Assembly (NCBI GenBank): GCA_002428665.1 | Contig: DIXK01000019.1 | Location: 28,758 to 92,757 of the forward strand | DNA: 64,000 bases | Origin: Verrucomicrobia subdivision 3 bacterium UBA6082 | Lineage (GTDB): Bacteria > Verrucomicrobiota > Verrucomicrobiia > Limisphaerales > UBA8199 | Reading direction: 5' to 3' | Shown here: positions 22,660-37,492 of the stretch, piece after piece | Layout of the letters: the number at the start of each line of letters is the position of its first letter | Numbering within the stretch: the first letter of the stretch is position 1 | Notes under the pieces: generated by a model | Database searches by the model: none | Told to the model about the DNA's origin: nothing | The model's input: only the letters and a program-made list of their open reading frames with translations | Program-made: the position numbers and the translations under genes

Positions 22660-23151
22660 GGTACCGTCTTTTGAGCAACCCATGTACCAAGAGGGTTGCG
22701 GTCCAAGCCACGTGGAATCCCCATAAACCAACTCGGATAATTCACCTCTGTGGAAGTGGCGTCGTATCAAGCCCCACCCGCGACGACCGCCACCGAATTT
22801 TCCAGGCGAATTCCCGAAGAATATTGTCTGTCGCGGCTTGGGTGCCACCCTCATTTCAATTCGATCTGTCACATACACGTGAAACCGACCCGGAGTTGTC
22901 ACACGCATGCGACAATCGGCGCCGCTGGGACAATGCTGATTACATGCGAATCTATGGTGGACTTCCTGGCGATTTGCCGCGCTGCCAAATGCGGTGAGAA
23001 TCCGCAAGAAAGCAGGGGAGGGGTTTGAACGCTCACCCGGCTTGGCAGACAGGAAACTCGCGGGAGTCGTTATTCGGGGATGAGCATGCTTGCTTTGGCT
23101 GGGTTGGCCAGCATCATGACAGTTGGTGATGTGAAAAACCGGCTATTGATT

Positions 23152-24597
23152 ATGCGACGATCTTTTGCGACTCGTTCGACCTGTGCGGCCCTGCTCCTGG
23201 CCATGGCCACGGCTCCCGCCTTTTCACAGGAAACCCAGGTAATCCATGCGGTTGCGGACCTGGGCCATCAATTCACGTTTTATGCCGATGGCCGATTCCA
23301 CAAGCAATATCTGCCCGACCAGCCGTATGCATCCAGTTGGGGCTCGTTGTTCAACTTCGATTTCTCCAACGCCAACCTGCTCCTGTTGCTGGGATGCGAT
23401 GCCCATCTCTCTTATTGGCCTGAGGATATAAACACCATCACGAGTTTTCTCCAGGAAGGTGGAGGCGTCATCCTTCTGGGAGCCGTCAGCGATGAAGCCC
23501 AGAACGCGCTTGCCCGTACTTTCGGTTGCGCGTTCGACAAACCCGCCGTCAAACCGCTGAAAGCAGCCTCCTCCCCCGTCTCGGGCGAGGTTGCCGGCGG
23601 CGGTGACACACTGCACCTGGACGAAGCCAAACTGTGGCAGGTGCTGGTGACTGATGCTCGGGGAGCCCCGATGTTGGCACGGCGAAAGGTGGGTCGCGGC
23701 ACCTTGGTGGCAGGCGCCCGCGGCTTGGCGGGACAGAATCCAAATGCCAGCGACAATATCAATGCCGCCTGGTGGCAACCGCTCCTTGTGGACGCTGCTT
23801 CCGGCAAGAAAGTCGATTCCAACAAACCTTTTCGGAGCCGCGGTATCGGGGATTTGGAGCATAGCGAGAACCTTGGACAAATCACCCTGCGGTATAGCGA
23901 CTATCTAAAACCTTTTGCCAAGGCGATGGCGGATATTTATCTGCGGTGCCGTCCCGTGATCGAGAAACGCATGGGGGTACCCCTGTCCGAAGGCATGGCG
24001 TCTGAGATTGGCCTGCTCGCCACCGGCGGTGGTGGTTTCTCCTCCGGCCGTATGCTTGGTCTGGCCGTGTTCTGGGGCGATTTCCCGACCCGCGAAGACA
24101 GCATGATTGAATTCATTACTCACGAATCCGTTCATTCCTGGGTCCTGCCTTTCGCCGAAATCTGGAACGAGCCTATTGCCACGTATGTGGGCAACCTGGT
24201 CATGATCGACCTGGGCCACGAAGCCGAAGCTCGTCGCCGCATTGCGAGCACGATCAACCGCGCCTCCCGCCTGGATCCCACGATGAAAATCTACGACTTG
24301 GATGGCCGCGGCCCAACCGGCACGCGAAAGCTCAGTGCCGGTGAAGCCAATGATATCCACTGGGGGAAGACCTACTGGATTCTGGAACAACTGCGCCAGG
24401 AGAATCCAGAGATTCTCCCTCTCTACTTCCAGGCCAAACGCCGTCTGGCCACCCCGGATAAAACCAGGAAATATGACGCCAACATCACCGTAGCCCTGCT
24501 CAGCATCGGGATGAAACGGGATCTGTTCCCCTGGTTCCGGGAGCATGGCATCAATGTAGAACTGTCCAACTCCCCGATCCCTATCACGCAACCATGA
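23152..24597 (+). CDS. secreted hypothetical protein with HExxH zinc-metallopeptidase motif
   Basis: Signal peptide MRRSFATRSTCAALLLAMATAPAFSQ and ITHESVHSW (HExxH). No further family assignment possible by eye. Confidence 0.5.
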   Translation: MRRSFATRSTCAALLLAMATAPAFSQETQVIHAVADLGHQFTFYADGRFHKQYLPDQPYASSWGSLFNFDFSNANLLLLLGCDAHLSYWPEDINTITSFLQEGGGVILLGAVSDEAQNALARTFGCAFDKPAVKPLKAASSPVSGEVAGGGDTLHLDEAKLWQVLVTDARGAPMLARRKVGRGTLVAGARGLAGQNPNASDNINAAWWQPLLVDAASGKKVDSNKPFRSRGIGDLEHSENLGQITLRYSDYLKPFAKAMADIYLRCRPVIEKRMGVPLSEGMASEIGLLATGGGGFSSGRMLGLAVFWGDFPTREDSMIEFITHESVHSWVLPFAEIWNEPIATYVGNLVMIDLGHEAEARRRIASTINRASRLDPTMKIYDLDGRGPTGTRKLSAGEANDIHWGKTYWILEQLRQENPEILPLYFQAKRRLATPDKTRKYDANITVALLSIGMKRDLFPWFREHGINVELSNSPIPITQP

Positions 24598-24606
24598 GAT
24601 ACGCGA

Positions 24607-24630
24607 TGTATGTTGGCGCACAATCTGTCC
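24607..24630 (+). repeat. left terminal inverted repeat of the element
   Basis: TGTATGTTGGCGCACAATCTGTCC, followed by further TGTCC copies at 24641 and 24648 and an inverted GGACC at 24727. Confidence 0.55.
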
Positions 24631-24767
24631 CGTTTTTTCATGTCCAATGTCCGAAAACCAAGGTAAAAGCTCTCAGGCGCCTGCTTTGGAGCTTTTTTAA
24701 AAACGCTCCAAAAAGCGTCTGTTTTCGGACCTAATCGGAACAGCCGGCGGATACCCTGATCTGCCTG

Positions 24768-25283
24768 CTATTGCCTGCTTGAAACGGCCTCTTTTTCCCC
24801 GGCCGTAAATTGGTTCAACTTGGCCCTAAGGGTTCGCTGTAACGCTGCCTTGTAGATGGCCAGGCCGTGCACGGTCTCGCCGCCCGGTGGCAGCACCCGA
24901 GCCTTAATGCCCTGGCAGTAGGAATCCGGGAATCCAAGGGAGGCCAACTGGCCTTCAATGGCCCGGATCTCCGCCTTCAACCCATGGTCAATGTAACGGT
25001 CCCTGCTAGTCTCGGCGCTTGTGTTTTTCTGTGACCAGAACCGTCTTTGCCGAAACACTGCAGAGGGCTTGCAGGGGGCCTGCACTTTGCCCAAATCGAC
25101 CCGGCGCCAGTAAATCGCCTCGAGGTAAGCCAGGCACCTATCCAGGTCCCGGTTGGTTAGCTTGGGATCTGTAGAAGACCTGCAGCCGGCCACAGCCCCT
25201 AGGGCGTCTCGATATTCGCCGTCCTCAAGCCCGGCCTCGCGCTGCGCTCGTTTTAACAGGATCTGTTGGGATCTGGTTAGCAT
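24768..25283 (-). CDS. GemA/gp16-like (DUF1018-like) Mu regulatory protein
   Basis: ILLKRAQREAGLEDGEYRDALGAVAGCRSS...DLDRCLAYLE and EIRAIEGQLASLG resemble Mu GemA/gp16-family proteins. The ATG at 25283 lies 5 nt after the ATPase stop. Confidence 0.5.
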   Translation of the reverse strand: MLTRSQQILLKRAQREAGLEDGEYRDALGAVAGCRSSTDPKLTNRDLDRCLAYLEAIYWRRVDLGKVQAPCKPSAVFRQRRFWSQKNTSAETSRDRYIDHGLKAEIRAIEGQLASLGFPDSYCQGIKARVLPPGGETVHGLAIYKAALQRTLRAKLNQFTAGEKEAVSSRQ

Positions 25284-25287
25284 GCGG

Positions 25288-26895
25288 TCACTGGGGCAAG
25301 AGTTGAGCCACTTCCCGAACGCCTTCCAGGTCATCATCCGAGGCTGGCTGAGCAGCCGGACGAGATCTCAAGGCAAATGGCGATGGCTCCTCGAGCTCTC
25401 CCATCGTCGGCGCAAGGTGCTCTACGTGTCGCGCCCGGCCGCTTCGCGGAGCTACGGCCGCAGCCAGAGCAGCATCGGATGGGATCACGCTGCCAACGAT
25501 GGCCCGGCGCAGGTCCTCTTCCTCAATCTGTGCCCGCCCGGCCTGGTTGGCTAGGTAGCGAGCGCGCCGCGCGGCCGTATCGATCGCGGCCAAATACTTT
25601 GCAGAGGCCTTAGCGTAAAGCACCAGCATCTTAATGGTTCGCCGGTCTCCTTCGGGCAATACGGACCTGGAAACGGCTTCGAGATCCTGATCCGAGAGCT
25701 TTTCTGGCAACTTCTGGTAGTGGCCCAGTCGCCCAGTAAATTGCTCGGATGCCCATCGCGTTTTGGCCTCCATCAGCTTCTGGGTCCTCATAAACTGGGG
25801 CGTAGTCACCAGAGCCACAGGCACCCCCATGTTGACCAGGGCGGTCATTAGCCAGTTCACCCGGCTGGGCAGGGACCTGGGGTCGATTAGGTTCGGCCAA
25901 AGGTAATGTGCTTCGTCCAAAACCAGCATCAGCCCGCCCCGCTGCAAAACATCCTCAATCCTGTCGCGCAGTTCAATCGCCTTACGATTGAGATTCACGG
26001 CCACGCCAAGGCTTTTGGCGATCGACCGGAAAAAACCAATTTCGTCATTCGTGCTCGGGACCTGCACATAGCGAGCTTGCCCTGGGTGCATCTCGCACCA
26101 GGCCTTGGCCGAGTGTGTCTTGCCCGTGCGGGCCAGCCCGTCGATCAGAACCATGCAACCACTCTGCAGTGCGTAGTCGAGCGTGTCGTAAACCTGTTTG
26201 CCGAGGGCTGTAACCACCGTGCGCTGCCGGCACTCCGCGATCTGCCCAGTCATGTATTCACGGAGCGTGCTGACTAGATCAGGGAAATACCACGGCCCGC
26301 CGACGATGGGCATTGATGGGTCCAGGCACAGCCTAGTCAAGTAGTCTAGCAGCCCCGAATCTGCCGCATTCCTGCAGCAGTCCAAAAAGACATCGCCGGG
26401 ATATGACGCCGGCCTGGTCGCGGCCTCGGCGTCGGCGATTTCATTCCTATGAATCGCAGCCTCAGCAATTCGCCTATCTTCAAGCAGGTAACTGTCACCC
26501 TCTGGGACTGCCGGCAAGGTGGCGATAGTCGCCGCCGAAAACTCGCCCCGAAGCAAAAATGACTCGGAGTCCGCATACGGAAGCTCATCTCGGATGGCCT
26601 TAACCCATTCGGCGCGAACCTGTCGACCGCGAGCAACCTTGAACCGTTGCATTGATGGGGTCTGGATTCGATCAGGGTAAGCCTCCACGAGCTGGCGGCA
26701 GAGTAACTGCAAGCCACCCTCAGCATGAGACCGCGCTTGGATAAACCAGATTAGCTCGCGCTCGCTGGGCGATTCCGGCAGCGCACACCGTTGAGCAACT
26801 AAGTTGGCCAGCAGCCCGCGTTGATACTCCAAGCTGCTGGCGTATCGTTCCTGTCGCAGTGGACCTCCGGTCTTAGCTGTTCGGGTGCTACTCAT
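25288..26895 (-). CDS. AAA+ transposition ATPase (MuB/TniB-like)
   Basis: Walker A GLARTGKTHS and Walker B LMLVLDEAHYL. Its start overlaps the transposase stop (ATGA). Confidence 0.8.
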   Translation of the reverse strand: MSSTRTAKTGGPLRQERYASSLEYQRGLLANLVAQRCALPESPSERELIWFIQARSHAEGGLQLLCRQLVEAYPDRIQTPSMQRFKVARGRQVRAEWVKAIRDELPYADSESFLLRGEFSAATIATLPAVPEGDSYLLEDRRIAEAAIHRNEIADAEAATRPASYPGDVFLDCCRNAADSGLLDYLTRLCLDPSMPIVGGPWYFPDLVSTLREYMTGQIAECRQRTVVTALGKQVYDTLDYALQSGCMVLIDGLARTGKTHSAKAWCEMHPGQARYVQVPSTNDEIGFFRSIAKSLGVAVNLNRKAIELRDRIEDVLQRGGLMLVLDEAHYLWPNLIDPRSLPSRVNWLMTALVNMGVPVALVTTPQFMRTQKLMEAKTRWASEQFTGRLGHYQKLPEKLSDQDLEAVSRSVLPEGDRRTIKMLVLYAKASAKYLAAIDTAARRARYLANQAGRAQIEEEDLRRAIVGSVIPSDAALAAAVAPRSGRARHVEHLAPTMGELEEPSPFALRSRPAAQPASDDDLEGVREVAQLLPQ

Positions 26896-29429
26896 GGCGT
26901 TGGCTCGCTTTCGCTGATTTGGTCCCCCGGCCCGTCCGAGTCCTTATCGGGGCTAAATAGATTGGCTATGTCACCGACGGCGAAAGGCTCAGGGCTTATA
27001 TCGTCCTCCGCTGACGGCTTCAGCATGCGATAGAGCTCGATCGCTGACTCCTGCTTTTCAGCGTCCCCCCGGTGAAATTCCAGGGCTGATTGCACGTCCT
27101 GCTCAGTTAAAGGCGTGCTGCGGATACGACGGAGCAGGGCCGCCTCCTGCCGGCGCCGATCGGCGGCTTGTTTCTTTTCCTCATTTAATCTTGATTGCAG
27201 CTCTTCTATCTCCTGGCCAAGCTTGACTGTCTCGGGAGTTGCGAAGACGCGCCTAAAATTAGGGTCGTGTTCCAATCGGAGCGCGCGGTAATAAGCCTTA
27301 GCGGGAGCATTATGTTGTGCAGCCCGCCTTAGTTCCTGGGATAGCAAATCCGGCGGGGCACCCAACCCTGGCACTTTTTGAGATTTCTCTACAATAAACG
27401 GGTTCTGCTGGTCCAAATCTGTAACCACGATCGAGTCAGGTATCTCTTGATCAAACCAGACCAGAACCTTCTGATTGACCAGCCATCCCGTTTTCTCGTT
27501 ACGATAAACACCACCGCCAAATGAACGCGGAAGCCGAATCCCGTTGCGCGTAACTCTCATCATGCTCCCATGATGTGACAGCTTGTAACGAAGCCAGGCA
27601 GGGAGTTTGGTCTGCGGATCGCTCGTTTTTTGCCGGTTTACAAATGCCGCGTCAGGGGACAGTCCCTCGCACAATTTGCCGTCTTGCGGGGTGGCGTTAT
27701 ACTTCGTGCAGATTTCATGCAAGCGCGACACCCATTGATTGGCGCTCAGGAATACATCGCTCGGATTCATCCGTCGCGCTTTAACAGCAAGTATAGCCTT
27801 CTGAACTCGCTCGAACTTGTCTTTACGCTCATCCCGACCAACGTAACCAGGGGTCGCCTCCATGAGGTCCTGAGCCGCCCCAATCACCCGCTCTACCAGC
27901 TTGACTCGCGCCGATCGGGCATGGATGAATTTCAGCCCAATATCACGAAAGCCTTTCTCTACTTCTGCGTTGGAAAAAGCAGTCCCATATGCCTTGCCCC
28001 CGGTAATGAGGCGAGAGGTTTCCCATATTCCGCCCTCAAAAACAAAGCCATATCTCGGCAAGCCGAATTCATCACAGGAGCGAGTCATCAACGTGCGGAT
28101 CGCACGGGCGTTGTAACTCCTGGACGAAAGCAAAATGAAGTCCAGAATTCTAGTAGACCTTAAGTCTATCATTATCAGGCACTGCCCCCTCATTAATGAA
28201 TACCACCCGTTCCCGTCCGGTTCATAATAGTAGACCGGTAATGTGACGTCGTCGGCCTGGTAAGCGTCGCCCGTGAAGACAGGCGACCAGTCGCGGTCAA
28301 TATAAGCACCGTTCAGTTTAGCTTGTTGGGGGCCGCGGTGAATGTTTTTGACAAGTCTGACCTTAGGCTGGACAAGGTCCCGAATCTTCCGGGGCACATG
28401 GGACTTGCTTCGGGGATTTGCGAGGTAATGCCCCGAAACCTCGGGGCCGAGCTTGTCCTTAACGTCCCGCCAGGCCTGAGAAACCCGGCTGCCAGTCTGG
28501 AAAACCGCATGGCCGACAATTCCATCCACGTCAGGCTTGGACAGATCTGGCGCTCTGAAAAACCCGGATTTATGCGGCCTTTGGTCTGTCACGGCCGACG
28601 GAATCCTCCCAGCCCGGACCCAGGCGGAGTATTTCCTGTCCCACTGTTTCCGCAACCCAGCGGGGCTGCCGGCGAGATAGTGGGAGGACTTCTCCAGGAA
28701 GGCCAGCAACCGACGCTTTTCCCGCTTCTGAGGCTTGCCGGCAGCGATCCCACGGTCAAACTCTTCGAACGCACTCACCCAGAGCATGGCCACTTCATCG
28801 CTCGATGGCTTACTCGGGTCCCTAAAGCTGGCGATACGCTTCTGTAGGGCCGGGATGGAAATGACCTGGCCGGTGGCGTTATCTGCGGCTTGAGTGCCGG
28901 CGTTATCGTCCAGGTAGATATCCAACCTTCCCCAATTCTCAACCCCAGCGTCCCTGGCTACCGTTCGATGAAAGAGACGGCGCCAGTGCCTGGCTGAAAT
29001 CGAAAACCCAAAGGCCTGCTTGTAGCCAGCCAGGCCGATGGCCTCGAAGTCCGCCTCCGAAATGCTTAGGTCATTAATCCGGGCGAGCGCAGGCGCTAAG
29101 GCTTTTTGTAGCATGGCTGCCTTCTCCTGGTGCCGGGGGCTGGCGTCCTTGAAGGCCACTGCCGGGTGCCAGGTCTGCTGCGGCGACAAGAGCAACTGCT
29201 CCGCGTTTCTGTAGCTGAGCTTGGCAGCCTGGCTGTTTAAACGCTCCTGCATCGCCGCCGGCAGCGCGCACAGATCCCAAGCGCTGGCCGGATTGCCGGA
29301 CACCACCACGACCCGGCCGGCGGGCGTGGATCGCAGCGCGGACAGCACCCAGCGCTTTGACAGGCCTAAGGCCAGCGCAATCTGCGCCGCAGTGAAGGAT
29401 TGAGTCGAGGTCTGGGGCTCAGAGGTCAT
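26892..29429 (-). CDS. DDE transposase, MuA/TnsB (rve-like) family
   Basis: N-terminal HTH (TAAQIALALGLSKRWVLSAL). Core motifs YQADDVTL, LIMIDLRSTRILDF, GLPRYGFVFEGGIWETS and ARVKLVERVIG parallel the Mu/Tn7 transposase catalytic regions. Confidence 0.8.
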   Translation of the reverse strand: MTSEPQTSTQSFTAAQIALALGLSKRWVLSALRSTPAGRVVVVSGNPASAWDLCALPAAMQERLNSQAAKLSYRNAEQLLLSPQQTWHPAVAFKDASPRHQEKAAMLQKALAPALARINDLSISEADFEAIGLAGYKQAFGFSISARHWRRLFHRTVARDAGVENWGRLDIYLDDNAGTQAADNATGQVISIPALQKRIASFRDPSKPSSDEVAMLWVSAFEEFDRGIAAGKPQKREKRRLLAFLEKSSHYLAGSPAGLRKQWDRKYSAWVRAGRIPSAVTDQRPHKSGFFRAPDLSKPDVDGIVGHAVFQTGSRVSQAWRDVKDKLGPEVSGHYLANPRSKSHVPRKIRDLVQPKVRLVKNIHRGPQQAKLNGAYIDRDWSPVFTGDAYQADDVTLPVYYYEPDGNGWYSLMRGQCLIMIDLRSTRILDFILLSSRSYNARAIRTLMTRSCDEFGLPRYGFVFEGGIWETSRLITGGKAYGTAFSNAEVEKGFRDIGLKFIHARSARVKLVERVIGAAQDLMEATPGYVGRDERKDKFERVQKAILAVKARRMNPSDVFLSANQWVSRLHEICTKYNATPQDGKLCEGLSPDAAFVNRQKTSDPQTKLPAWLRYKLSHHGSMMRVTRNGIRLPRSFGGGVYRNEKTGWLVNQKVLVWFDQEIPDSIVVTDLDQQNPFIVEKSQKVPGLGAPPDLLSQELRRAAQHNAPAKAYYRALRLEHDPNFRRVFATPETVKLGQEIEELQSRLNEEKKQAADRRRQEAALLRRIRSTPLTEQDVQSALEFHRGDAEKQESAIELYRMLKPSAEDDISPEPFAVGDIANLFSPDKDSDGPGDQISESEPTP

Positions 29430-29734
29430 GTTACTCTAAAAAGCAAAGCTGGCCGGTCCCCGATATTCGCCGCTCCTTCAAACGGCCGTTTCGGAAAGCG
29501 CCTTTCGGCAACCGGGCCGCCCCACAGCCCAGACCGACCAGCAAATTCTAAATTAATCCTCAGCGGGGATTCCGACCCCCGATTGCTACCCATTGCAAAA
29601 CGCAGGAAACCCATTGCAAAACGATTGCAGCCAAAAACCCCTAACTGGATACCCAGAAAACGTCCCAGGGCATCCTGGAGCGATTTCGCGGCTTGCCGCC
29701 AAGCCTGAGTTTTTGCAATCCAGGCGTGCATCAT
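29426..29734 (-). CDS. hypothetical 102-aa protein (or non-coding regulatory spacer)
   Basis: Supported only by ATGA start/stop overlaps with both neighbours. Contains the 15-bp direct repeats (peptide RFAMG x2). Third-position GC about 52 percent by my count. Confidence 0.3.
   Translation of the reverse strand: MMHAWIAKTQAWRQAAKSLQDALGRFLGIQLGVFGCNRFAMGFLRFAMGSNRGSESPLRINLEFAGRSGLWGGPVAERRFPKRPFEGAANIGDRPALLFRVT
29588..29623. repeat. two perfect 15-bp direct repeats, 21-bp period
   Basis: ACCCATTGCAAAACG at 29588-29602 and 29609-29623, flanked by CGATTGC at 29580 and 29622. About 160-200 bp upstream of the transposase ATG. Confidence 0.9.
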
Positions 29735-30219
29735 ACCTCGCAGCCTTCTTTGGTTTGGTTTCCAAGCAGCCACCGGGTCACTGCCGCTTGGCGGTCTACC
29801 TCGGCATTCAGTTCCGCGAGCGTGGGCATTGCCAGAACTCCGCCGGCGGTTGGCCACCACAGACGCCACACGTCCTCGCGGGTATCGATCCAGGCAAGCT
29901 GGGCGCAACCTGCCAGCCCAGCGCTAGCCAGGGCGCGCCGAGTCGTTTCCAGCCCGGCGCCTACGTTCTCACACCGGATAAAAACGATTGCGCGGTTTAA
30001 TTCGAGCCCTGCCGTGCATCTTTGCAAGCTAACTCCGTCCGCCCGGAATGATGCCTGCAGGAGCGCGCTTAGCACAATCGTGCCGATCCGGTTGAAAGAC
30101 GGGTAGCAGAGCGCCGGCGCCTCGGCTGGGTCCACTGAGATTTGCAAACGAACCAAAATGTTGAACTCGGTCAGTCCCGCGTTCTGCGAGTTCGGTGAAG
30201 GTTGGGGCTCGCGGTTCAT
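29731..30219 (-). CDS. hypothetical protein (162 aa)
   Basis: ORF linked to its neighbours by ATGA overlaps at both ends; no recognisable motif. Confidence 0.5.
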   Translation of the reverse strand: MNREPQPSPNSQNAGLTEFNILVRLQISVDPAEAPALCYPSFNRIGTIVLSALLQASFRADGVSLQRCTAGLELNRAIVFIRCENVGAGLETTRRALASAGLAGCAQLAWIDTREDVWRLWWPTAGGVLAMPTLAELNAEVDRQAAVTRWLLGNQTKEGCEV

Positions 30220-31538
30220 TTACTTCGAGTGTTGGCGATGAGCTGCTCTGCGCGCGCAATCCGCTGCAGGATGTCTTGCTGCTGGGCACTTAATCGCAGC
30301 AGACCCTGAGCGAATCGAGTATCGGTCTGGTTACCGGATTCGATTTGACTGAGAATCTGCTGTGCCAGGTTGGCGCGCTGTTGGTTGGTGGTAGCCAGGG
30401 CGCCTAGCCAGCCAACGGCGGAATCAGTTGCGGCGCCCGATTGGCGCACGGCCGATTCCTGACGCATGGCGGCTTCCTCACCAGGGAGAGACATATCCAG
30501 CCCAAAGGCCTCGACCGCAGCGCTGGCAGCGCCACTGGTCAGACTGTCGCGCCTGGCTCTGGCGGCATCCCGGCCGGCCCGACGTTCACGAAAGCTGTTG
30601 TATCGGCCGATGATGGCCTGGCTGTCGGCTATTCCGCCCTCTTCGCGGCGACGGGCTTCTTCCCAACCAGTGAAAGGACCCCAACGGTAATACGCCTTGG
30701 GTTGATGGAGCCAATACTTGAACCCTCCGCTCTGCATCTCCCCCAACATCCCCAAATATCCCTGCCGGCTAGCGATGTCCTTTTGGGCAAGCTCAGCTTG
30801 CTTGGCCAACTCGGCTTCGGTCTTATCATCGTCGGCTGAGCTTCCCAGGCGGATCTCGCCCGCCATACCCATTTTCCGACGAGCCTCAAGGATGAGGTTG
30901 GCCCGCCTTCCGTATTTCGCGGACAGTTCGCGTTGCGCGGCAATCTCCTTAATATTCAAACCGGCCTGGCCGTAGCGGTCCTCCAGGGCTTGCCTTGCGA
31001 CTGCATAATCTCCCTCACCCATGCTGTCTCGCTGCGCGTCAAGCCTAGCCATGTCCAGGGCACGCTGCTGCTTCAGAATCTCCATCTGAGCGTCAGCTTG
31101 CCGTTTAATGGAAGCAGCCAGTCGATCGCTGTCGGCTGTTGCTGATTTGTAGTGCTCGGAGGCCTGGCTAATCGCAAGACCGAACTCCCGCCAAGCGTTA
31201 GCGGCAGCCGTCACTCGCCCAACAAAATCAATCTTGATGTTGGGCAGTTCGAACCCAGCCAGGCTGCGCGTGAGTTCATCCACTCGCTTTCTCCAGAGTG
31301 CGAAAGCTGCCACAATTGCCAGGACCGATGCGGTGATGGGGTTGACCATCATGCTCGCCGCTTGGGCCAGCAGCGGGAACTGGAGCGAGAGCCCGCGGAA
31401 AGCGTCCTTGAGTTGGGTCGAGGCCTTGGCCGTCTTGCCGACGGCCGCCTCCACCTTGCCCAACGACTCGGCAGCGCGCTGCGCTCCAGACGTCTCGGCC
31501 TGGGTCCGTATCAGGATGTCAACCTGTTCATCGGCCAT
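30216..31538 (-). CDS. coiled-coil protein with central hydrophobic segments (tape-measure/scaffold-like)
   Basis: About 440 aa from the ATG at 31538 (MADEQVD). Hydrophobic stretch LQFPLLAQAASMMVNPITASVLAIVAAFALW, then long Ala/Arg/Gln/Glu-rich heptad-like regions. Confidence 0.55.
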   Translation of the reverse strand: MADEQVDILIRTQAETSGAQRAAESLGKVEAAVGKTAKASTQLKDAFRGLSLQFPLLAQAASMMVNPITASVLAIVAAFALWRKRVDELTRSLAGFELPNIKIDFVGRVTAAANAWREFGLAISQASEHYKSATADSDRLAASIKRQADAQMEILKQQRALDMARLDAQRDSMGEGDYAVARQALEDRYGQAGLNIKEIAAQRELSAKYGRRANLILEARRKMGMAGEIRLGSSADDDKTEAELAKQAELAQKDIASRQGYLGMLGEMQSGGFKYWLHQPKAYYRWGPFTGWEEARRREEGGIADSQAIIGRYNSFRERRAGRDAARARRDSLTSGAASAAVEAFGLDMSLPGEEAAMRQESAVRQSGAATDSAVGWLGALATTNQQRANLAQQILSQIESGNQTDTRFAQGLLRLSAQQQDILQRIARAEQLIANTRSK

Positions 31539-31542
31539 ACTG

Positions 31543-31830
31543 CTAGATCTTCGGCTTTCTTCCGACCCTGCCGACTTTGGCCTCCAATAGCCCACTGAAC
31601 CCTCTCAGCGCGTAAGCCCGGTCCCATCGGCGCAGTGAAGATTTCGAAGCGGCAAAGCGAAATTCGCGGGCAGTGCGAGCAAGAGCTGCTTCGCTGCCCA
31701 CGCCATCGCGGATTAGGTGCGAAAGCAATCGGACGGCTTGTTCGCGCATTAACGCGCGGCCTAGGGCTGGAGGCGAAAACTTGTCGCGCGCTCGATTGGG
31801 GCGAGCGCTTAGATTATTGGTGTTGGTCAT
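31543..31830 (-). CDS. small HTH DNA-binding protein (IS3/IS481 OrfA-like HTH)
   Basis: 95 aa from the ATG at 31830. ...AALARTAREFRFAASKSSLRRWDRAYALRGFSGLLEAKVGRVGRKPK resembles transposase-type N-terminal HTH domains. Confidence 0.55.
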   Translation of the reverse strand: MTNTNNLSARPNRARDKFSPPALGRALMREQAVRLLSHLIRDGVGSEAALARTAREFRFAASKSSLRRWDRAYALRGFSGLLEAKVGRVGRKPKI

Positions 31831-32028
31831 ATACTGAAGGAAAAGAATGCACCCTACCCGGACGATACGGGCAGGGTGCCAGGGAGAGGTAAAATCCACT
31901 GCTTGAGCAGGTGAGCAAAGCGGCGGCAAAACAACTCCCCCAACCAGCGCCCGACGGGGAAACAAACGACCCCTGCGGCTGCTGGTTAAATTTTTGTTTC
32001 ATGAATAATCCTATGCCTCGGAACGCAC

Positions 32029-32601
32029 TCAGTCGTAACGCACCGTTATTGCGTCCAGGCTACAGGCGCTCGTTCCGTCGAGCACCACGCGCACAGGCCG
32101 GCCACGATTGCCGCTGTAGATGGCCTCGCCCTGGTAGTTAACCGTGGCTGCAGCGCATTTGAGCGTGGTTGCGGCGCTCATCTTGTAAACCTCATCACCA
32201 GGCAGGGTCACAACGCCATTCGTGGCGACCAGGGTAACGTTGGTTGTGTTCGCGAACGCGGCAATAACCGCGCTCGTGTGCGTGCCGTCGGCATTCACGA
32301 TCACCAGGACGTCATCGGCCGCGAGGCCGTTGGTGCTGGTGACGCTTATCGTCCCGCCGCTGGCGTTGCTGGAGCCAATCACATAGGGAGTGGTCCCTGT
32401 GCGAATGGAGAGCACGCTCGCGGCCTTGTCGCTCGTTGCAATAGCCCCGACTAGCCGAATCTGCGCTTGCGGATTGGCAGGGAAATGCACTTCGCACGAT
32501 GCAGTGCCGGATGCGTTCTTAGTCACGTAATCGGCGCCTGCGGCCGGGAGGGCGACAATTGCCGCCAAAGCCAGGCCAAGAAGATTTCTAGTTCTGTTCA
32601 T
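32029..32601 (-). CDS. secreted beta-rich hypothetical protein
   Basis: Signal peptide MNRTRNLLGLALAAIVALPAAGA. Thr/Val/Ala/Gly-rich mature part. Lies immediately downstream of the capsid gene. Confidence 0.6.
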   Translation of the reverse strand: MNRTRNLLGLALAAIVALPAAGADYVTKNASGTASCEVHFPANPQAQIRLVGAIATSDKAASVLSIRTGTTPYVIGSSNASGGTISVTSTNGLAADDVLVIVNADGTHTSAVIAAFANTTNVTLVATNGVVTLPGDEVYKMSAATTLKCAAATVNYQGEAIYSGNRGRPVRVVLDGTSACSLDAITVRYD

Positions 32602-32642
32602 ATCGATGTTCTATTTCTCGATTGCGGTTGATTCGTTACGGC

Positions 32643-34028
32643 TTATGCCGCCGGCGTTTTGAGCGCAGAGGCTGCTTCCAGGCTCGCGTAATCGAAGTCG
32701 ACTAACTCCAGGAACCGAGTCGCCAGCTGGTCATACACAAAATAGACATGCTCGCTGGTATCGATGCGCGGCGTGCCCCGTTGGCCCATCCACCAAAAGC
32801 GCAGATTGCCAAAGACTGCCAGGTTCTTGCTAGCTGCAGCCGCTGTGCTGTAGGGTTGCAGAACCTCGGTCCATGTGATCGGGAACCCATCAAGGCGAGC
32901 GGTGCCGTCGGGCGTATAAACAAAGGCGTAAGGATCGCCTGCGGTGTTGAACGCACGCAACCGCGATTCCCACGACTGATTGAGGAAATACCGCGCACCC
33001 GAAAGTGCCCCGGTGGAAACCAAGCGCCTCATTTCACGGAAGTCTTCCAAATCGGCATCGCTGGGCTTGGTGTTGCCTGCAGCAAGCTCAATGACTTTAG
33101 CGTTCTCAGATGCGATCTGACACACGCCTTTGATTTCGCCATACGTGGCAGTGCCGTCTGCCAGGAAGCCCCAGGTATCTTCAGCACGAGCGAACTCGAT
33201 TGCCCCATAGCGAGCCAGGAATTGGCCCATAGCCACGGCGGAGCCAGTGTCAATCTCGGTAGGAACAATCACAATGCCACCAAGCTTGTGAGGCTCAAGG
33301 CTAGCAAAGGTTAAGGTCGGTTTCTTCTCGAGCACCTCGCCGCTCATATCGATAGCCCCGAAGGCAGGCCGCGTTCCCATCCGGGGCGGTTTGGCAACGC
33401 CCCCGGCCATGGGGTAGATAGTCATGGCCCTGCGGACAACGCCGAACTCCGCGATGAGTTCGACGAGCTCTGAACCGTAAATCTCCGGCAGCGGCACTTC
33501 GGTAGTGCTCAGCGCTCGAGTCGAGCCCACCAAGCTGCGGGCCTCGGCGAGCAAAGAGTCTCGGTGACTCGCGGTTGGAATGAAAGACTCCAGCTTGCCT
33601 GAGCGTTCCGCATGCAGCACCACGGACGCGGTTAGCGACCTTGCGCATTCGTCGCTCACCTGGCCCGGCCGGCGCGCAGTGAAACTGCCTGTCAGTCGAG
33701 CTCGTCGCAGCGAGACCAAGTGATCTGCCTGCTCGTTTGCAACCTGTTCCAACTTATCGGTCCGGCTCTTCAGGTTTCTCGTGTCTGTAGCCAACTCGGC
33801 GACACCAGAGAGAACGCGCTTCTGGAACTCGCCCCGATCCAATGGCTCATCGTCTCCTTCAGCCCGAGAGCGGCTGGCTGCAAGCCCAACTGGGAAAGCC
33901 GCGAGCACGCCGGCTTCTGGGATGCTGTAAATGACAGCGATCAGAGCCAGCACTGACAAGGTTACCAAGCCCAGCACCAGGACCCACGAGGGGACACTGT
34001 GCTGCCGTTCGTTAAATCGTTCATTCAT
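32643..34028 (-). CDS. HK97-family phage major capsid protein with N-terminal TM helix and coiled-coil (delta-like) region
   Basis: LPEIYGSELVELIAEFGVVRRAMTIYPM...LEKKPTLTFASLEPHKLGGIVIVPTEI...FLARYGAIEFARAEDTWGFLADGTATYGEIKG follows the Phage_capsid (HK97) consensus. N-terminal hydrophobic segment VPSWVLVLGLVTLSVLALIAVIY. ATG at 34028. Confidence 0.75.
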   Translation of the reverse strand: MNERFNERQHSVPSWVLVLGLVTLSVLALIAVIYSIPEAGVLAAFPVGLAASRSRAEGDDEPLDRGEFQKRVLSGVAELATDTRNLKSRTDKLEQVANEQADHLVSLRRARLTGSFTARRPGQVSDECARSLTASVVLHAERSGKLESFIPTASHRDSLLAEARSLVGSTRALSTTEVPLPEIYGSELVELIAEFGVVRRAMTIYPMAGGVAKPPRMGTRPAFGAIDMSGEVLEKKPTLTFASLEPHKLGGIVIVPTEIDTGSAVAMGQFLARYGAIEFARAEDTWGFLADGTATYGEIKGVCQIASENAKVIELAAGNTKPSDADLEDFREMRRLVSTGALSGARYFLNQSWESRLRAFNTAGDPYAFVYTPDGTARLDGFPITWTEVLQPYSTAAAASKNLAVFGNLRFWWMGQRGTPRIDTSEHVYFVYDQLATRFLELVDFDYASLEAASALKTPAA

Positions 34029-34047
34029 ACTAATTAATCTCGAAAAT

Positions 34048-34320
34048 TTAGATTCTGTTCCCCCGGACCGGAGCTGGGTATTCGCCAAGGGCGACCCCAA
34101 AAGGCCGGGTCAAAATCTGGTTGTTCCAGCCCTCTAAATCGGGCGCGCCGCTGGTCGATAGGCATAGGCGCGCATAAGGCCTGATCGACTGTCTCCGATC
34201 CATTCTGCCGGATTCTAACTGCACTAACAGGTGTGATGCCTGGCCATCCACCGGCGGCTGCCCAGGCTGCAAGCCTGCCGGATCTCTCACACCAAAATTC
34301 ACATTTGCCGCAACAATCAT
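34048..34320 (-). CDS. hypothetical 90-aa protein
   Basis: Fills the gap between the Ner-like gene (stop 34328) and the capsid ATG (34028) exactly; there is no other support. Confidence 0.3.
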   Translation of the reverse strand: MIVAANVNFGVRDPAGLQPGQPPVDGQASHLLVQLESGRMDRRQSIRPYARLCLSTSGAPDLEGWNNQILTRPFGVALGEYPAPVRGNRI

Positions 34321-34327
34321 GTCGCAA

Positions 34328-34714
34328 TTACTGCCCAGCCTGCTGGGTGCTGGCCTCGGCAGTCATTTCTTTGAGCTCCTGATTGCTTTTTTGCATGGTC
34401 AAAACAATCTTTCGCAGCCGGGCAAGTCGATAGTTCGCGGACTGGATCATAGCCGCGTTACCCCTCTTGCAGTCCTCAATGGCCCCCAGGATTTTTTCCT
34501 GGAACTCTAGCGAATACGGATTTGGCTGTTTCATAATTTCACTGATCTCGCGATACCCTGCCAGGAGCTTTGGGTCTTGACGCCTGCCGAGCAGGGTAAA
34601 CCGAAGGTGATTGTATGAGCACCCAAGGATCACAGCTGCATCCGCCAGCCCCGGCCACCGTCTTCGATTATGGCACACACTATGTTTTGCCAATTCTTTA
34701 TTGCAACGCGTCAT
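34328..34714 (-). CDS. Ner/Cro-like small HTH regulator
   Basis: WPGLADAAVILGCSYNHLRFTLLGRR resembles Ner/Nlp-type HTH domains. Divergent from the repressor gene. ATG at 34714 (ORF open to 34753). Confidence 0.5.
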   Translation of the reverse strand: MTRCNKELAKHSVCHNRRRWPGLADAAVILGCSYNHLRFTLLGRRQDPKLLAGYREISEIMKQPNPYSLEFQEKILGAIEDCKRGNAAMIQSANYRLARLRKIVLTMQKSNQELKEMTAEASTQQAGQ

Positions 34715-34798
34715 TGTGGGTAATAGGAAACACTCTTCCCGCTCTCCCGTCAAGGATTTCTTTGTTTTTTAATTCGACGGGTTAACATCGGCTTTTCG

Positions 34799-35620
34799 AT
34801 GCCTAGAAAGAACCCAGTACCAGCGCGCGACGTCGAAATTGGACGAAGGCTTGCGACGTTCCGTAAAGCCCGCAGATGCCCACGATCTTATTTGGCCGCG
34901 CAGACCGGAATGGATAGCTCCGCAATTGCGAGAATCGAACAAGGCCGGGTCCCTTTAAAATATCATCAAGCCAGGGAGATCCTGCGCTTCTTCAAGCTAA
35001 ACCCCATGTGGGTAGCCACCGGAATGGGATTAAAACAAGCATATTGGGAGCTTCCAAATTTCGAAAAAAGTGCGGAAAACGATGACTTTTCAAAGGTCAT
35101 GGAGTATTTTGGTGAGAGAATTTTTCCCCAGTATTCCTCGGATGTGATAAGGGAGGCCGAGCAGAGGTCTTCGGAACGGGAGCCAGCCATTGAACTGATA
35201 ACACTAGCTGCGCGAGAGTGGTGCGGAATGGTCAACGAGTCCTCATTCAATAGCTTTTTCAGTTCCTTGATAGACTACGGTTACTTCCTGGCGGAGAAAT
35301 ACCAACAAAACGCCATTCCCGACAATGCTCTAAGCAATCCAACCCCCCCTAGACCCCGCCCAGAGAATGAAATCAAAAAAAAGGACTTGCACGATGTTAA
35401 CGCAAAAGTTAATGATGGAGACGTGAACCAAATGGCCAGTCTGATAAACCGACTCCTGGTAGCAACCCAAGCTCGAGGCAAGAAATCTGAACTTGCGAGG
35501 TTCTTGGGCCTTCCGTTGGCTAGTGTTTCTCAGTGGCTGTCTGGCAAGCGATCCCCGTCCGGGGAAACCACGCTTAAGCTGCTGGAATGGGTTGAACGGC
35601 GAGAGCGTGAAACCAAATAA
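34799..35620 (+). CDS. repressor-like protein with two XRE-type HTH domains
   Basis: N-terminal IGRRLATFRKARRCPRSYLAAQTGMDSSAIARIEQGR and C-terminal KKSELARFLGLPLASVSQWLSGKRSPSGETTLKLLEW. Confidence 0.75.
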   Translation: MPRKNPVPARDVEIGRRLATFRKARRCPRSYLAAQTGMDSSAIARIEQGRVPLKYHQAREILRFFKLNPMWVATGMGLKQAYWELPNFEKSAENDDFSKVMEYFGERIFPQYSSDVIREAEQRSSEREPAIELITLAAREWCGMVNESSFNSFFSSLIDYGYFLAEKYQQNAIPDNALSNPTPPRPRPENEIKKKDLHDVNAKVNDGDVNQMASLINRLLVATQARGKKSELARFLGLPLASVSQWLSGKRSPSGETTLKLLEWVERRERETK

Positions 35621-35650
35621 AAACCCCAGCGATGCTGAAACATCGCAGGG

Positions 35651-36484
35651 GTGAATCGACCCAGGAGAAAGCACCGCATGCAAAGCAATACTAACAACCG
35701 GGCCAACGGCCACAGTAATAAAAAACGCACACGAAAGCAAACCGGACGTTTACTGGCCGATGATACCCAATCCTGCCAGCCCGCATCCATCTTCAACAAT
35801 GATGATCAGCTCAAAAAGTTGAGTGTCGATGAAATGGCCGAGCTTTGTGCAAAACATGAATCCAAATTCGGCCAGACGCCGGATTTTAATGATCTTGCAG
35901 ATATCTATGTCTATGATCTATCTGACGCCCAGATACTGGACTCGGTGTCCCTCCTGGTGGATGAGTTTGCGGACGATCTGAGCCAGCTGGTAAAGAAAAC
36001 CCTGGTGATCATGCCCGGCCGATTCAGAATCTGGGCTATGCACATGCTGTCATCTGTAGCCGCAGCGCGCGAAGCTGCCCGGCGTTGCCGGTGGTATGGG
36101 CTCAAGTCCGCGCCTGGTCGCATGGCAGAAAAAGAGGGTCATGGCCGCGAGCCGATGCTCCTGGATCTCTACGGATTCAGTGGGCGCGTGGCCTTTAGCG
36201 ATGGGGATCTGCTATCTCACATCTGTGATAATGTGTATGGCTGGCGCACTGAAATTCAAGAAAAGCTCCTTAGCCAGTATCACGGGCAGAGGCGCAGCAG
36301 AATGCTCGAGCTTCTCAGTCTTTGCGAGAAGGTTTGCCTGCGCGACGGAACGGCTGATGAGGCACTGTTAAGTGAAATGCGGTGCGGTTCCACTCCGACA
36401 GTCAACCTTGTCATGGACGATCGTAGTGATCGCTTTCTGCAGGCCATTAATACCCACCGGACCCCGGAAAAAGTAAGCCGGTAA
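35651..36484 (+). CDS. hypothetical protein (basic N-terminus)
   Basis: 277-aa ORF in the AT-richer segment with no recognisable motif. Alternative ATG start at 35678. Confidence 0.5.
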   Translation: MNRPRRKHRMQSNTNNRANGHSNKKRTRKQTGRLLADDTQSCQPASIFNNDDQLKKLSVDEMAELCAKHESKFGQTPDFNDLADIYVYDLSDAQILDSVSLLVDEFADDLSQLVKKTLVIMPGRFRIWAMHMLSSVAAAREAARRCRWYGLKSAPGRMAEKEGHGREPMLLDLYGFSGRVAFSDGDLLSHICDNVYGWRTEIQEKLLSQYHGQRRSRMLELLSLCEKVCLRDGTADEALLSEMRCGSTPTVNLVMDDRSDRFLQAINTHRTPEKVSR

Positions 36485-36497
36485 CCAGGTCTTCGCC

Positions 36498-36953
36498 GTG
36501 GACGCAAGCAGTAACCAATCGCCAGAGCCAACCCTGGAGACCATTACTGACGTCCAGGAACAGCTGATTGCGGCTATCGCCGGCCTGGACTCCGACCAGA
36601 GCCGGCGCGCTGAGGTCATTGGTAGGCTGCGCAGCCTCCGAAATATAGTAATATCAACCCTTGTCTGGATTCACGTGAAGGACGGTTTCAAAGAGGAAAT
36701 CGATCTCAAATTCGTTGGCGAGCCGGAAGGCCCCCATCGGCAAGTAACCAACTCCGACGCGGTCGTTTACCTGCGGGAGCTCCGGAGCATCGTTGAGGGT
36801 GCCCTGGACCTATCCAAGGAGGCCCCGCGCGATGGACTCGAGCAAGCCTTCGCCAGTGACCACGAGGTAGACGCGCAAGCAGTGAAAGACGCCCTATTCG
36901 ATAGCCGCGTTCGGCGCCTCCGCCAGGCGGTCGACAACTTCCGAGGCAATTAG
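36498..36953 (+). CDS. hypothetical protein (151 aa)
   Basis: GTG-initiated ORF 13 nt after the previous stop, followed by a rho-independent terminator. Confidence 0.5.
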   Translation: MDASSNQSPEPTLETITDVQEQLIAAIAGLDSDQSRRAEVIGRLRSLRNIVISTLVWIHVKDGFKEEIDLKFVGEPEGPHRQVTNSDAVVYLRELRSIVEGALDLSKEAPRDGLEQAFASDHEVDAQAVKDALFDSRVRRLRQAVDNFRGN

Positions 36954-36972
36954 GCCTACCCCACTCCCTAAC

Positions 36973-37009
36973 CGCCGGCTTGGCTAACCCCCTGGCCGGC
37001 GTCTTTTTT
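36973..37009 (+). terminator. rho-independent terminator
   Basis: CGCCGG-17 nt loop-CCGGCG followed by TCTTTTTT. Confidence 0.65.
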
Positions 37010-37075
37010 GCCGGTGGTGCCCCAGATCAGCGGCCGGGATCTCGCCCCCCTAGCCAGGCAACCCCCTTGTAAGCC

Positions 37076-37093
37076 GATTGCGCCAAGCTTGCA
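37076..37093 (-). repeat. third, internal end-like sequence
   Basis: The reverse complement TGCAAGCTTGGCGCAATC shares TG and the TTGGCGCA..ATC core with the left tip. Confidence 0.4.
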
Positions 37094-37345
37094 CCCCCTC
37101 AGAAATCGCCCTTCAGGGCAACTCAACCAGCCCCAAAACCCCCGTTTTTCGCTTCACACCTCACACCCCCCCCACCGCCACCGACAATTTGTCCACTTTG
37201 CATGTCCAACCCAATATTTACAGGGGTTTGCTCGCTGTCTGGTCTGGACATCCATTTTGGACAGATTATGAAAACTGGACAACTTATGGATTTCGACGCC
37301 TTTAATAACGTCGCTGTAAGCCATTGATTTTAAGGCCAATAAACC

Positions 37346-37365
37346 CTAATCAAGGCTAATCAAGG
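37346..37365 (+). repeat. perfect tandem 10-mer x2
   Basis: CTAATCAAGG CTAATCAAGG inside the right end. CCTAATC also occurs at 24730 in the left end. Confidence 0.9.
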
Positions 37366-37378
37366 AAAACCCCATTTC

Positions 37379-37402
37379 GGACAATTTGTCAGCCAAGGGA
37401 CA
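37379..37402 (-). repeat. right terminal inverted repeat of the element
   Basis: The reverse complement TGTCCCTTGGCTGACAAATTGTCC matches the left tip at 17 of 24 ungapped positions. Additional GGACA copies at 37246, 37259 and 37277. Confidence 0.55.
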
Positions 37403-37415
37403 ACGAATCGAAGAC

Positions 37416-37492
37416 TGGTACGCGAGGCGGGGGTCGAACCCACAACCTTCGGCTCCGGAGGCCGACGCTCTATCCAATTGAGCTACTCGCGC
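37416..37492 (-). tRNA. tRNA-Arg (anticodon CCG)
   Basis: The reverse complement GCGCGAGTAGCTCAATTGGATAGAGCGTCGGCCTCCGGAGCCGAAGGTTGTGGGTTCGACCCCCGCCTCGCGTACCA folds as a cloverleaf. Anticodon loop is CTCCGGA and CCA is encoded. Confidence 0.95.

Follow-up and report, generated by a model that had tools for sequence, protein, structure and literature searches.

What delimits a mobile element that stops 13 nucleotides (nt) short of a transfer RNA (tRNA) gene, and what placed it there? Both questions are raised by a stretch of 64,000 nt from Verrucomicrobia subdivision 3 bacterium UBA6082 (contig DIXK01000019.1, positions 28,758 to 92,757; hereafter the window), in which an earlier note, made from the sequence, had described a Mu/Tn7-like element whose repeat-rich right end, at 37076–37415, adjoins a tRNA-Arg gene. 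Our analysis indicates that a 12.8-kb Mu-type DDE transposon has its functional tRNA-proximal end at 37076–37415, a stretch that also takes in a 4-bp target duplication and 13 nt of host spacer. Taken jointly, these boundaries, a Mu-type plan of the end and targeted docking have in our estimate a probability of about 85%. In kind the right end is an ordinary Mu-type end; the family is apparently undescribed (full-text literature searches gave no description of it), and what sets it apart is generic docking at genes for tRNA and transfer-messenger RNA (tmRNA).

Element boundaries and docking beside tRNA and tmRNA genes

The element was delimited using an unoccupied site, its terminal inverted repeat (TIR), and the tips and target-site duplications (TSDs) of the family. 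The features concerned are as follows.

24603–24606 (unstranded): left copy of the TSD, GCGA, identical to the single copy in the unoccupied site
24607–37402 (minus strand): whole mobile element, a Mu-type DDE transposon of 12,796 bp with genes read mainly on the minus strand
37403–37406 (unstranded): right copy of the TSD, ACGA, one base off GCGA
37403–37415 (unstranded): host spacer of 13 nt from the tip to the tRNA 3′ end, present in the unoccupied site
37416–37492 (minus strand): intact host tRNA-Arg(CCG), the docking landmark (ARAGORN; Rfam tRNA, 66 bits)

The unoccupied site is carried by a 184-nt contig from metagenome run X8, which runs through 24498–24599, then AAACG, then 37404–37480, with 0 mismatches to the window on the left flank and 0 on the right, and which lacks all of 24607–37402, including 37094–37402. 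It reads ...CATGAGAAAACG-CGA-ATCGAAGAC-tRNA, with the tetranucleotide GCGA present once. The TG...CA tips that the earlier note had placed at 24607 and 37402 are thus real transposon ends, confirmed by the unoccupied site and by relatives, and the right tip lies 13 nt from the 3′ end of tRNA-Arg(CCG). Window position 24600 (T, against AA in the X8 strain) is the sole difference in the 179 aligned flank bases. Two further metagenome runs (X5 and X7) contain a relative of the tRNA flank (~96%), lack the left flank and are uninformative for the unoccupied site; in a synteny search for such a site, no tRNA follows the left-flank gene in G024, the one relative that has this gene.

Relatives, taken as complete elements recovered from metagenome contigs and genomes, have a common core of repressor, variable cargo, transposase and ATPase. 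Their transposases are 30–50% identical to that of the window (at most about 50%) and come mostly from Verrucomicrobiota metagenomes; a homologue is present in 51 of 401 genomes of the same order. For the ATPase, at least 435 homologues were counted. The tip consensus TGnnnnTTnnCGGATAAnTTGTCC, with TG tips, recurs among them, and both window tips fit it. In each of the 17 elements whose two tips were mapped, the TSD is exact and 4 bp long, and a 5-bp TSD occurs in 0/17; an exact duplication and a 28-nt tip match of at least 18 were search criteria in nine of the 17. A first TIR scan had picked a false pair inside L036 and had given no clear result for L025, L027 and L035, which were later resolved by reading from the tRNA ends; the far tip of L039 was not found in this mapping, and L048 is ambiguous.

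In 24 independent insertions the 3′ end of a tRNA or tmRNA gene precedes the tip by 11–17 nt (mode 14). About ten identities serve as docking genes, namely tRNA-Arg (CCG, CCT), Val (TAC, GAC), Leu, Met, Sec, Asp, Glu and Gly and one tmRNA, and genes without an encoded CCA give the same distance (16–17 nt) when it is counted from the discriminator base. It is the repressor-side end that adjoins the gene in 23 of the 24, L059 being reversed. Alignment of the sites on the insertion point shows the T-arm (GGTTCRAnnCC) and CCA to be the only parts conserved in register; the spacer is not. A same-strand tRNA within about 11 kb upstream is found at 18 of 31 order-wide loci, compared with ~5% expected (our own estimate, from typical tRNA gene density). 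These data support the suggestion, raised earlier from the 13-nt distance in the window, that insertion beside the tRNA is targeted.

Could the target be chosen by RNA? A small RNA from the conserved non-coding end might act as guide, or host tRNAs might pair with their own genes, the hybrid being read by the transposition proteins. In keeping with this, some 400 nt at the docking end are non-coding and conserved, every target gene (that for tmRNA among them) encodes an abundant structured RNA, and type V-K CRISPR-associated transposons (CASTs) use a guide RNA to home to tRNA genes (bioRxiv 10.1101/2021.02.06.429022). However, no match of 11 nt or longer was found between any element and its neighbouring tRNA, the end region gave no Rfam match to a known non-coding RNA and no promoter-like site, no Cas-like gene was found in the window, and the conserved blocks are common to elements docked at different tRNAs. 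We therefore give RNA-mediated targeting a slim chance.

Random insertion by a Mu-like element, with the tRNA neighbourhood reflecting the survival of harmless insertions, would account for three relatives (L053, L067 and L077) that have clean ends and duplications away from any tRNA. Selection, however, cannot yield a spacing of 14 ± 3 nt together with a 23:1 orientation bias in 24 insertions at about ten kinds of tRNA-like gene, and this explanation is highly improbable.

Organisation of the two ends

The repeats, near-palindromes and end-like copies of the two ends, counted from the tips, are arranged as follows.

24607–24652 (plus strand): ATPase-side end, with tip TGTATGTTGGCG, site 1 core ACAATCTGTCCCG at nt 14–26 and two more TGTCC sites, at 24641 and 24648
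36980–37009 (plus strand): terminator-like hairpin closing the plus-strand genes; the non-coding end region starts after it
37076–37093 (minus strand): 'spare end-like' 18-mer with the motif YTTGGCG(N1-2)AA, 310–327 nt from the tip; an internal motif, not a boundary
37152–37167 (minus strand): tandem heptamer GGTGTGA-GGTGTGA-AG, at ~nt 236–251 from the tip, just inside the inverted site
37183–37210 (plus strand): inverted accessory sites GACAATTTGTCCAC...CATGTCCAA, at nt 196–213 from the tip, oriented like the opposite end and without a TG tip
37243–37290 (minus strand): three direct subterminal sites, with TGTCC at nt 122, 140 and 153 from the tip
37317–37329 (minus strand): box AATCAATGGCTTA (WATCAANNNNTTR), like the IHF consensus, in the spacer that separates site 1 from the subterminal sites
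37346–37365 (unstranded): perfect tandem 10-mer, CTAATCAAGG twice, just inside site 1
37377–37402 (minus strand): right, tRNA-proximal tip TGTCCCTTGGCTG and site 1 core ACAAATTGTCCGA at nt 14–26, the core being near-palindromic

Every sequence feature that the earlier note had listed is present where it was placed: the TIR with 17 of 24 positions matched, the five GGACA copies, the near-palindromes, the tandem 10-mer, the 18-mer and tRNA-Arg at 13 nt. The TIR pairs the left tip at 24607–24630, TGTATGTTGGCGCACAATCTGTCC, with the reverse complement of 37379–37402, TGTCCCTTGGCTGACAAATTGTCC; the GGACA copies start at 37246, 37259, 37277, 37379 and 37398. The near-palindromes, TTTCGGACA at 37375–37383 with TGTCCGAAA at 24648, and GACAATTTGTC at 37183 and 37380, were seen because the site core is itself near-palindromic (GGAYAAnTTGTCC). 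Two TGTCC copies of opposite orientation, at 37190 and 37203, had not been counted before; they make up the conserved inverted accessory site. The TGTCC/GGACA cluster is significant (7 copies per 220 nt versus 0.385 expected, P 1.8e-7), and the two proposed ends are the two windows of 220 nt richest in this motif in the whole 64 kb. The spacer of ~90 nt between the tip site and the direct sites holds the 10-nt tandem repeat and the IHF-like box.

This plan recurs in the family. In nine elements (that of the window and eight relatives), each end was searched with the element's own tip site, and the common arrangement is a site at nt 14–26, one or more direct sites at ~nt 108–157 and an inverted site at ~nt 200. 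A direct site at nt 108–134 was found in seven of the nine (six of the eight relatives), and an inverted site at nt 169–232 in eight of the nine, matching in each case that element's own tip site; the opposite, ATPase-side end has a compact site cluster only. Site cores vary from element to element (TTGTCC, TCTTAAC, TTGTACA, TTGTGCA, TCTGCCG), and the internal sites match the tips of the element in which they lie, the pattern expected if all of them are bound by the element's own transposase. With positions conserved and sequences co-varying with the tips, the GGACA copies probably behave as subterminal transposase sites, as had been proposed for them. Tandem repeats of exactly 10 nt occur at nt 29–60 in four of the nine elements, compared with 0.5% of random segments, and an IHF-like box, ATCAANNNNTT, occurs at nt 66–76 in the same orientation in six of 18 elements, compared with 1% of random interior segments.

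Two further blocks are features of a clade. The heptamer block, near-identical as GGTGTGAGGTGTGA at nt 218–250 in L027, L035, L038 and L042, is present in five of 25 ends, and so is the 'spare' motif YTTGGCG(N1-2)AA, which lies in the same orientation at nt 295–328 in L017, L027, L035 and L062, all docked at other tRNAs.

The 'spare' motif bears on the alternative right boundary that the earlier note had put forward, with the element ending at 37093 and 37094–37402 being what an earlier insertion beside this tRNA had left behind. Its attraction is that TGCAAGCTTGGCGCAATC has the TTGGCGCA core in common with the left tip, and nested insertion into the end of another element does occur in the family (L077). 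But 37093 is not the right boundary, because the unoccupied site lacks 37094–37402 as well; moreover, there is no duplication at 37093 and no TGTCC site after the motif, the motif is internal to the four relatives just named (and in L027 and L035 unlike their own tips), and the plan of direct and inverted sites in 37094–37402 is kept in complete elements with perfect TSDs. We regard a boundary at 37093 as having almost no likelihood. The same unoccupied site answers the concern that the GGACA-rich DNA might belong to the host: it is absent there and is not host sequence.

A cleavable mini-element of 220 bp formed by the tip and the inverted site was considered and rejected, because neither the window nor L017 has a TG suitably spaced from the inverted site; for want of a TG at cleavage distance, the inverted site is an accessory site and not a second end. 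An open reading frame (ORF) in the end region (37008–37271) has no homologue in the other elements.

Several observations weigh against the combined reading of boundaries, end plan and docking. The contig with the unoccupied site is of low depth (2.85) and stems from a strain that differs slightly (AA for T at 24600), and the window's own TSD is imperfect (GCGA and ACGA, three of four bases matching), the substitution being in the tRNA-proximal copy. The TIR of 17/24 is by itself not significant: it is the sole such pair in a search of 400 by 426 nt, where 0.8 would be expected by chance. The assignment of transposase sites draws on repeats and co-variation, and the heptamer and TTGGCG motif are confined to the 5/25 ends given above. 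Ends are unmapped at 11 of the 31 order-wide loci, and five mapped relatives lie away from any tRNA: the three with clean duplications already mentioned, and L025 and L033, in which the tips are family-like and neither a tRNA nor a matching duplication is present. Finally, L059 (16196–16284) is docked in reverse, with its ATPase-side tip (TGTAAC...) 14 nt from the 3′ end of tRNA-Gly and a perfect GGGT duplication.

Some of these relatives have features of their own. L025 (G000:C108:80764-83052) is a distant paralogous element in the same genome, about 11.2 kb long, with a transposase 36% identical and an inverted internal site. L077 (1100–1230) is nested, with a perfect AATT duplication, in the repressor-side end of another family member, and the outer sequence around it has AAAATCAATGGCTTAC in common with window positions 37316–37331. 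The first six tip bases are end-specific, most tRNA-proximal tips reading TGAGTC, TGAATC or TGTCCC and far tips TGTAA, TGTAG or TGTAT, an extra asymmetry that may help to set the orientation.

Transposition proteins and the choice of target

Two proteins, a transposase and an ATPase, are the only ones universal across the nine elements; there is no third. In the window they are encoded as follows.

25288–26895 (minus strand): AAA+ ATPase of the MuB/TnsC/TniB type (Pfam AAA_22 and TniB; phrog_296 "DNA transposition protein"; fold)
26892–29429 (minus strand): MuA/TnsB-type DDE transposase of 845 amino acids (phrog_310 "transposase", E 4.6e-26; fold)

The model of the transposase (pLDDT, the predicted local distance difference test, 75) has the Mu transpososome 4FCY as its top Foldseek match (E 7e-13), along with TnsB of CASTs and of Tn7; the entries matched also include 8EA3, 9BW1 and 1BCO. 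That of the ATPase (pLDDT 82) is closest to TnsC of ShCAST (7PLH) and to MuB filaments (8XVB/8XVC), with target template-modelling scores of 0.76–0.82. The fold search alone gave these relationships: sequence searches of the PDB with the transposase, the ATPase and a 29-sequence profile returned no match to MuA, TnsB or MuB. Against Pfam, the transposase does not match rve and matches Mu-transpos_C weakly (E 0.018), and the ATPase exceeds the TniB cut-off of 22.4 with 22.7 bits; a scan of the genome contigs with the transposase gave no match. Residues 1 to ~220 of the ATPase form a conserved N-terminal helical extension that lies outside the TnsC and MuB fold matches (alignment A2). Among the transposases, D393/D394, E465 and E513 are invariant acidic residues (alignment A1), and the position of the usual second Asp of MuA-type enzymes appears to hold Glu (motif FYFExG).

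The other genes between the tips include a weakly GemA-like ORF on the minus strand, a double helix-turn-helix (HTH) repressor-like gene on the plus strand and further family-less ORFs on both strands. No TniQ/TnsD, TnsA, integrase or Cas-like gene was found among the window ORFs, and there is no TniQ match even at E ≤ 1, as the earlier note had surmised for a TniQ/TnsD-like gene. A classical tRNA-associated island placed by a site-specific recombinase, with the repeats as its arm sites, would likewise adjoin a tRNA 3′ end, and a 7-mer, TACGCGA, is found in both the left flank and the tRNA acceptor stem, but this is the least probable explanation of all, given that no integrase was found, that the insertion lies outside the tRNA gene, that the tips are TG...CA, with 4-bp duplications of unrelated sequence in 17 relatives, that the unoccupied site has no duplicated tRNA sequence and the junctions show only the 4-bp duplication outside the tRNA, and that the enzymes have MuA and MuB folds.

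We propose that the MuA/TnsB-like transposase would bind the tip site and the accessory sites, and that the ~90-nt spacer, with its phased 10-nt repeat and IHF-like box, would, by analogy with Mu attL, be bent by a host factor, bringing the distal sites back to the tip. The asymmetry between the extended right end and the compact opposite end could fix the orientation of insertion, and strand transfer would take place with a 4-bp stagger. The reference for target choice would be the T-arm and acceptor in the 3′ part of any tRNA-like gene, leaving the tip 13–14 nt after CCA; most likely the two universal proteins themselves contain the selector. Our preferred candidate for it, put forward tentatively, is the conserved 220-residue N-terminal extension of the MuB/TnsC-like ATPase; what links this domain to the tRNA gene is its conservation and the absence of other candidates, nothing more, which tells against the proposal. 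Stated in full, the hypothesis is a new mode of target choice among MuA/TnsB-type transposons, in which a selector within the transposase–ATPase pair, most likely the N-terminal domain of the ATPase, would read the T-arm and acceptor of all tRNA-like genes, tmRNA included, and place the element 10–14 bp past the gene in one orientation, without TniQ/TnsD, Cas or an element-encoded guide; we hold the chances for and against it to be evenly balanced. In a bolder version, host tRNAs themselves would act as the guide.

Relation to known transposition systems

Likeness to Mu and Tn7, claimed for the element from its tips, holds for the tips, the fold and the asymmetry of the sites and fails for the duplication, which is 4 bp and not the 5 bp of Mu, Tn7 and Tn5053. 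In phage Mu, attL consists of L1, an HU-bent spacer of ~80 bp and then L2–L3. Like Mu, the element has a transposase of MuA fold, an ATPase of MuB-type fold and TG...CA tips; its repressor-proximal end has a terminal site, a ~90-nt spacer and further sites, its other end is compact like attR, and the repressor gene lies near its right end. It differs in its duplication, in docked and oriented rather than near-random insertion, in the extra 220-residue N-terminal domain of the ATPase and in having no sequence-level match to MuA in the PDB. It also differs in size and content, 12.8 kb with a capsid gene as the only virion gene recognised; the full head, tail, packaging and lysis set of a Mu-like virus, in a genome of ~35–40 kb, is lacking here.

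The IS21 family, with IstA and the AAA+ helper IstB, resembles our element in its two-protein module of transposase and ATPase, in its TG/CA ends with repeated sites below the tips and in its short duplications of 4 bp, whereas the proteins of our element give no IstB_IS21 or rve profile match and the ATPase fold matches TnsC and MuB, not IstB; in addition, members of the present family are 6–15 kb long, carry cargo and a repressor, and dock at tRNA genes.

With Tn7-like elements and CASTs the element shares a TnsB/TnsC-type pair, TGT...ACA tips with several asymmetric end sites, and insertion in one orientation at a fixed distance downstream of a tRNA gene. The tRNA-homing CASTs compared here are CyCAST and PmcCAST, via TnsD, and a V-K CAST, via a guide. 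Known homing of this kind is by TnsD at a single tRNA, 30–33 nt downstream (in CyCAST, 30–33 nt after tRNA-Leu; PMC10293859), or by guide RNA (bioRxiv 10.1101/2021.02.06.429022). In our element, by contrast, no TnsA, TniQ/TnsD, Cas genes or guide were found, about ten tRNA identities and tmRNA are used instead of one cognate site, the distance is 13–14 nt instead of 30 or more, and the duplication is of 4 bp. Closer to it in target range, as an analogy only, are the retroelements Ty3 and Dictyostelium TRE5-A, for which any tRNA gene is a target at a fixed short distance and a safe haven; they read Pol III factors upstream of tRNA genes, whereas the present element is a bacterial DNA transposon and inserts downstream.

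To our knowledge, precise and oriented docking is known in Tn7-like elements, where it always depends on one cognate site and on a selector devoted to the task, be it TnsD/TniQ, TnsE or a CRISPR effector. The Mu-clade module described here docks 3′ of apparently any tRNA or tmRNA gene without a recognisable selector, which, if confirmed, would be a new solution to the choice of target site and a compact two-protein system with a safe-harbour site found in every bacterium. The end map (tip site, a probably bent spacer, accessory sites both direct and inverted) delimits the minimal DNA for transposition tests and, combined with the 4-bp duplication and the tRNA landmark, allows related elements to be delimited automatically in metagenomes, where they are common.

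Cargo and flanks offer some minor observations. The HK97-type major capsid gene (32643–34100, minus strand; TIGR01554, E 7e-25) sits on a transposon without portal, terminase or tail genes; among relatives, L017 and L026 also carry a capsid gene, and L036 carries Portal_Mu and a 970-residue protein. At the P0055 locus of one family member, genes of a type I restriction-modification system, DarT and a Macro-domain gene resemble defence cargo; immediately downstream of them come a short HTH gene and the genes for transposase and ATPase. In the left flank of the window, a 1068-residue multihaem cytochrome c with an FN3 domain (19801–23007, minus strand) is encoded upstream of a 505-residue ORF that abuts the element.

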